IMG/VR virus record: IMGVR_UViG_2698536395_000026
Strand: one strand, 5' to 3'
From: a virus
Lineage: Duplodnaviria; Heunggongvirae; Uroviricota; Caudoviricetes
Length of the DNA: 14,774 nucleotides
Below, in pieces: positions 14,746 through 14,774 of the stretch. Position 1 is the first letter of the stretch. The number at the start of each line of letters is the position of its first letter. The position numbers and the translations under genes are program-made. Below the pieces are notes generated by a model. It was given only the letters and a program-made list of their open reading frames with translations, ran no database searches and was not told the DNA's origin.

Positions 14746-14774
14746 CTGTAGCTTATACACATCTGACGCTGCCG
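14746..14774. other. Illumina Nextera adapter remnant (sequencing artifact)
   Basis: Bases 14752-14774 (CTTATACACATCTGACGCTGCCG) are a 23/23 match to the Nextera Read-1 adapter CTGTCTCTTATACACATCTGACGCTGCCGACGA (reverse complement of the Tn5 mosaic end). 14746-14751 (CTGTAG) matches its first 6 nt at 4/6. Confidence 0.75.

Follow-up and report, generated by a model that had tools for sequence, protein, structure and literature searches.

Sequence at the end of an Escherichia coli prophage contig attributed to an untrimmed Nextera adapter

Introduction

In the Nextera method of library preparation, Tn5 joins genomic DNA directly to a 19-bp mosaic end that carries a Read-1 or Read-2 tag. The Read-1 transposase adapter consists of TCGTCGGCAGCGTC followed by the Tn5 mosaic end AGATGTGTATAAGAGACAG. 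If the fragment is too short for the read length, sequencing continues into the reverse complement of the opposite adapter, which in the Read-1 case has the form CTGTCTCTTATACACATCT-GACGCTGCCGACGA. Assemblies are screened for adapter contamination by NCBI VecScreen and FCS-adaptor. Our search of the literature on Nextera adapter contamination found only routine genome announcements. Adapter carry-over in public assemblies is documented, for instance by a GenBank survey of Oxford Nanopore adapters and barcodes (PMC13182109).

Here we describe the right end of a viral contig (Caudoviricetes, IMG/VR record IMGVR_UViG_2698536395_000026), which was analyzed as a single stretch of 14,774 nucleotides, called the window below. 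The window contains part of a P22-like prophage, the beginning of the insertion sequence IS600 and, at its very end, 29 nucleotides that are almost certainly a Nextera adapter (Table 1).

Table 1. Features of the window, with the observation on which each assignment is based.
Feature	Position	Strand	Basis
P22-like prophage of E. coli O26:H11, integrase-to-coat part	1–14554		100% identity to several complete genomes
Scaffolding-protein gene, 3' remnant (67 codons and stop)	14351–14554	−	Reference identity ends at 14554; in-frame translation
IS600 (IS3 family), first 191 nt: left inverted-repeat end, leader and orfA codons 1–42	14555–14745	+	97.9% identity
Untrimmed Illumina Nextera adapter, reverse complement of Read-1	14746–14774	+	27/29 match; IS600 homology ends at 14745
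Pair of adjacent mismatches within the mosaic end (AG for CT)	14750–14751	+	Adapter alignment

Results

Terminal sequence of the contig

The last 29 nucleotides of the contig (CTGTAGCTTATACACATCTGACGCTGCCG) were found, in an ungapped comparison with common Illumina adapters, to correspond to the reverse complement (CTGTCTCTTATACACATCTGACGCTGCCGACGA) of the Nextera Read-1 transposase adapter (TCGTCGGCAGCGTCAGATGTGTATAAGAGACAG). The final 23 nucleotides (14752–14774) match the adapter exactly and the six nucleotides ahead of them match at four positions. This agrees with the initial annotation, which had reported an exact 23-nt match preceded by a partial one, and refines it in that the match is to the reverse complement. 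The Tn5 mosaic end (CTGTCTCTTATACACATCT) lies at 14746–14764, with 17 of its 19 nucleotides present. The remaining ten nucleotides (GACGCTGCCG, 14765–14774) are identical to the first ten of the Read-1-specific tag (GACGCTGCCGACGA), and the adapter is complete except for its last four nucleotides (ACGA). The sole mismatches are two adjacent positions within the mosaic end, AG where the adapter has CT. With up to three mismatches allowed on both strands, this is the single adapter site in the window, and no match at the same threshold occurred in any of 200 dinucleotide-preserving shuffles of the window.

Other library adapters provided a poorer fit. Exact 12-mers of the Read-2 adapter are confined to the mosaic end that the two Nextera adapters share (starts 14752–14753), and the Read-2 tag (CCGAGCCCACGAGAC) fits less well; exact Read-1 12-mers run on into the tag (starts up to 14763). 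Both TruSeq adapters likewise fit less well than Nextera Read-1.

The homology to IS600 stops at exactly the first nucleotide of this match. The window ends with ...GAAGGCACTTTAGGAC and then the 29 nucleotides; it tracks IS600 copies as far as ...TTTAGGAC, after which the real copies read AATGGGTTACCGCC and the window reads CTGTAGCTTATACA. Four independent copies continue with AATGGGTTACC at this point. A megablast search with positions 14540–14774 against 5,426 complete E. coli genomes returned records annotated as "IS3-like element IS600 family transposase", and all matches listed among 3,287 E. coli records end at query position 206, corresponding to 14745 in the window. With the last 69 nucleotides as query, no alignment in the 5,426 genomes extended past position 40, which is again 14745. 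In exact scans, a 20-mer spanning the junction (GGCACTTTAGGACCTGTAGC) was absent from GTDB representative genomes, JGI metagenome contigs, and IMG/VR, and a longer junction pattern (35-mer) was absent from IMG/VR. An independent assembly with the 29 nucleotides embedded in genomic sequence was sought and found in none of these collections or in the complete E. coli genomes.

Occurrence in other viral contigs

At least 120 unrelated contigs in IMG/VR carry the exact 23-mer at an end. Among the matches listed (121 occurrences in 120 contigs), 119 are within 57 nt of the end of the locus and point outward. The canonical CTGTCT precedes the 23-mer in 119 of these 121 occurrences, and other variants precede it in two. 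ACGA follows in 109, while five stop at ...GCTGCCG, as the window does. In one contig (L098, 92–114), the adapter is followed by an 8-nt i5 index, the P5 flow-cell sequence, and a poly-A run. Such terminal, outward-pointing 23-mers are the standard signature of read-through that was left untrimmed before assembly.

Many of the listed adapter-bearing contigs (L004–L123) come from data set 3300045988. In L007 (2158–2180), the 23-mer is internal and adjoins NN, suggestive of a chimeric join.

The mosaic end derives from the ends of Tn5, and 17 of its 19 nucleotides are present, as might be seen if the terminal sequence were real DNA, either a natural Tn5/IS50 end or a laboratory mosaic-end transposon inserted in IS600. 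However, the natural outside end (CTGACTCTTATACACAAGT) and inside end (CTGTCTCTTGATCAGATCT) fit less well than the synthetic mosaic end, matching at 14 and 13 of 19 positions, respectively. The ten nucleotides past the mosaic end are exactly those of the Nextera Read-1 tag. This tag is a synthetic site for a sequencing primer and is not known to form part of any transposon. The sequence is also at the very end of the contig and directed outward, as in 119 of the 121 listed occurrences, and it occurs in none of the 5,426 complete E. coli genomes. The probability of a Tn5 insertion, whether natural or made in the laboratory, is negligible, and we regard it as practically excluded.

The match to a synthetic oligonucleotide, the break in IS600 homology at the junction, the lack of any genome that continues across it (including by the junction 20-mer), and the outward-facing ends of at least 120 other contigs together identify the terminal 29 nucleotides as an artifact. 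We conclude with near certainty that they are a Nextera adapter that escaped trimming and became incorporated into the end of the contig, and the initial annotation was thus correct in calling these bases library artifact. Counting against this conclusion, the match to the adapter is imperfect, and two adjacent mismatches are atypical of Illumina errors. The AG at 14750–14751 most likely reflects sequencing or assembly errors. A systematic variant of the oligonucleotide was sought in IMG/VR contigs with the 19-mer carrying the AG form of the mosaic end, which had no match, and we treat this form as a probable one-off error.

Reading frame across the junction

The orfA gene of IS600 starts with the ATG at 14619, and its product in the window reads MSRKTKRYSKEFKAEAVRTVLENQLSISEGASRLSLPEGTLG and then PVAYTHLTLP. 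For 42 residues this product matches the real OrfA protein, except for a lysine in place of glutamine at residue 6. From 14746 on, the frame encodes PVAYTHLTLP where real OrfA has QWVTAARKGL, so that the transposase frame does change character at exactly the point noted in the initial annotation. The frame crosses the adapter without a stop codon. Because it is open throughout, a gene caller would extend a partial coding sequence into the adapter and thereby add 10 spurious residues, and the earlier advice that these bases not be annotated as coding is well founded.

IS600

The left end of IS600 in the window begins with TGAGGTAGCC, has the 5'-TG start of an IS3-family terminal inverted repeat, and is in register with four aligned reference copies that have unrelated flanks (from plasmid pCFSAN029787_01 and strains 7_12_30A, STEC316, and O121 201805972). 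The identity in Table 1 is to the best IS600 copies from E. coli and Shigella, over all 191 nt. The reference copy (L001, 1510–2773) is 1264 bp in length and carries a transposase annotated as having a programmed frameshift. Of the 5,426 complete E. coli genomes, 3,048 contain IS600, in up to 43 places per genome. The initial annotation had taken the adapter as showing that the contig terminates inside a repeated IS copy. The contig does terminate there, but it is the identity of the preceding sequence as IS600 that shows this and not the adapter itself.

A start of IS600 upstream of 14555 was considered, as BLAST alignments began at 14544–14546 and at 14539. The five-copy alignment revealed these starts to be spurious, the alignments having spilled into flanks of partial similarity, with the true start being the TGAGG at 14555. 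The ten nucleotides ahead of this start (14545–14554, GCTGGCTCTT) are similar to those flanking IS600 in pCFSAN029787_01 (L001, 1500–1509, TCTGGCTCAT), which caused BLAST alignments to start 9–11 nt early. This likeness may be due to chance or to a weak target preference; the flanks of the other copies are unrelated.

Prophage and insertion site

The genes of the prophage part are, in order, intS, an acyltransferase gene, the tailspike gene, arc, genes for three ejection proteins and the tail needle, gp10, gp4, and the coat gene. In E. coli O26:H11 the prophage is located beside tRNA-Arg and yfdC (for example, NC_013361.1, 3264365–3278918). The window opens precisely on the start codon (ATG) of intS. 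Its left end thus resembles a cut placed at a gene boundary by a provirus call, with the right end alone being a true contig end.

The acyltransferase-family gene (1403–2545, minus strand) is situated between the integrase and tailspike genes. In P22-like phages this interval is the usual place of an O-antigen-modifying lysogenic-conversion gene.

The gene at the right end of the prophage part is intact in NC_013361.1, where it is an 885-nt coding sequence between the coat and portal genes that corresponds to positions 14351–15235 of the window (minus strand); its position marks it as the gene for the scaffolding protein. IS600 most likely interrupts this gene in the window, after 14554. An exact look-up of the 46-amino acid open reading frame at 14351–14491, within the truncated gene, returned no recorded match. 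Two genomes (H11 and H12) seemed to cover positions 1–14745, and in these IS600 is located ~5 kb farther along, past the terminase genes.

The junction between prophage and IS600 (14554/14555) was found in none of the 5,426 complete E. coli genomes, including 77 that carry most of the prophage. This absence favors the view that the whole tail from 14555 on, IS600 and adapter alike, comes from a chimeric read and that the scaffolding gene of the strain contains no IS600. The four private substitutions described below, along with the adapter ending, also fit a tail that rests on very few poor reads. Against a chimera, the sequence switches to IS600 precisely at the first base of the element, the same base as in four independent copies. 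Transposition yields precisely this arrangement, whereas a template switch or ligation would meet that base about one time in 1264. IS600 is, moreover, abundant and mobile in this lineage, occupying between 3 and 21 places in each genome among the listed O26:H11 records. Because the IS600 terminal repeat begins right at the junction, genuine transposition is far likelier than a chimeric read, which we regard as improbable. As judged from its sequence, the junction is most likely a genuine transposition junction.

Substitutions in the IS600 stretch

Four substitutions in the IS600 stretch are private to the window: GTT in place of TCC at 14581–14583, and A in place of C at 14634, the latter being responsible for the change of glutamine to lysine at OrfA residue 6. 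They were found at none of the ~6,000 places that IS600 occupies in complete E. coli genomes and at none of 1,671 plasmid places (PLSDB, including Shigella), for which the best identity was 97.9% over 191 nt. The variant had no match in GTDB representatives. Among complete E. coli genomes, identity reaches at most 96.0% over 14560–14660 and 97.9% over all 191 nt. Only nine complete E. coli genomes, none of which is among the listed O26:H11 genomes with the prophage, share the C at 14723. In contrast, positions 1–14554 are 100.0% identical to O26:H11 genomes.

Errors are demonstrably present in this tail, since two substitutions occur inside the synthetic adapter, where biological divergence is impossible. 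The last 220 nucleotides probably derive from one or a few low-quality reads, to judge from these changes. The zone of low confidence thus probably starts at about 14555 rather than at 14746.

The adapter could be an artifact and the four IS600 differences nevertheless real. The strain would then have a diverged copy of IS600, distinguishable from the others, and the contig would run 191 nt into the element as a result. Three of the four differences are adjacent, a clustering that is unusual for Illumina errors, and IS600-like copies of 80–95% identity exist in E. coli. On the other hand, the four changes are found in none of the E. coli, plasmid, and GTDB sequences searched. A recent insertion, missing from all related complete genomes, should also equal its donor copy, and the two adjacent substitutions in the synthetic adapter are errors in the very same tail. 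We consider a diverged copy possible, but lean toward errors in low-quality reads. The verdict on 14746–14774 is the same in either case. The combined proposal, in which a strain-specific insertion of IS600 in the scaffolding gene disables capsid formation and the inserted copy is genuinely diverged (GTT at 14581–14583, lysine at residue 6) and seen nowhere else among the sequences searched, is in our estimation unlikely.

Discussion

The terminal 29 nucleotides of this contig are an ordinary, well-known artifact and not biology. A route by which they may have entered the contig can be proposed. Tn5 would have cut within IS600, between 14745 and 14746, to produce a fragment whose read continued into the adapter. 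Miscalling of two bases within the mosaic end may have weakened the match to the adapter, allowing the read to escape trimming. Reads that are unlike every known IS600 copy at four positions would yield k-mers that stay separate from the collapsed IS600 repeat. The assembler could then have extended the prophage contig for 220 nt on a path of its own, as far as the read reached. The unique markers along the path (14554/14555, 14581–14583, 14634, and 14746) are separated by 27, 51, and 112 nt. If the assembler used k-mer sizes up to the typical largest value of 127, all of these gaps would be shorter than k, which would account for the contig extending 191 nt into the repeat.

The relevance of these observations is limited to data hygiene. 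Positions 14746–14774 should be trimmed; otherwise the partial IS600 orfA gains ten spurious residues, and similarity searches with the untrimmed end would match other adapter-contaminated contigs. Positions 14555–14745 are unfit to define a new variant of IS600 without support from reads. The at least 120 IMG/VR contigs with the same adapter indicate that such contamination is widespread in public collections of viral contigs. If the insertion of IS600 is real, the prophage could not assemble capsids.

Like IS600 of Shigella and E. coli, the window has the left terminal repeat and leader as well as orfA codons 1–42. It differs in having just 191 of the 1264 bp, with orfB, the right end and the 3-bp target duplication lying outside the contig, and in its four private substitutions. 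The case documented for GenBank (PMC13182109) likewise concerns synthetic library oligonucleotides left by incomplete trimming, but these are from Nanopore and not Illumina Nextera libraries. The closest resemblance is to Nextera Read-1 read-through as found in at least 120 IMG/VR contigs, in which the mosaic end and Read-1 tag are also located at the contig end, point outward, and are joined directly to genomic DNA. Among the contigs searched, the AG mismatches occur in the window alone, while the missing ACGA is a trait it shares with five of the 121 listed occurrences.
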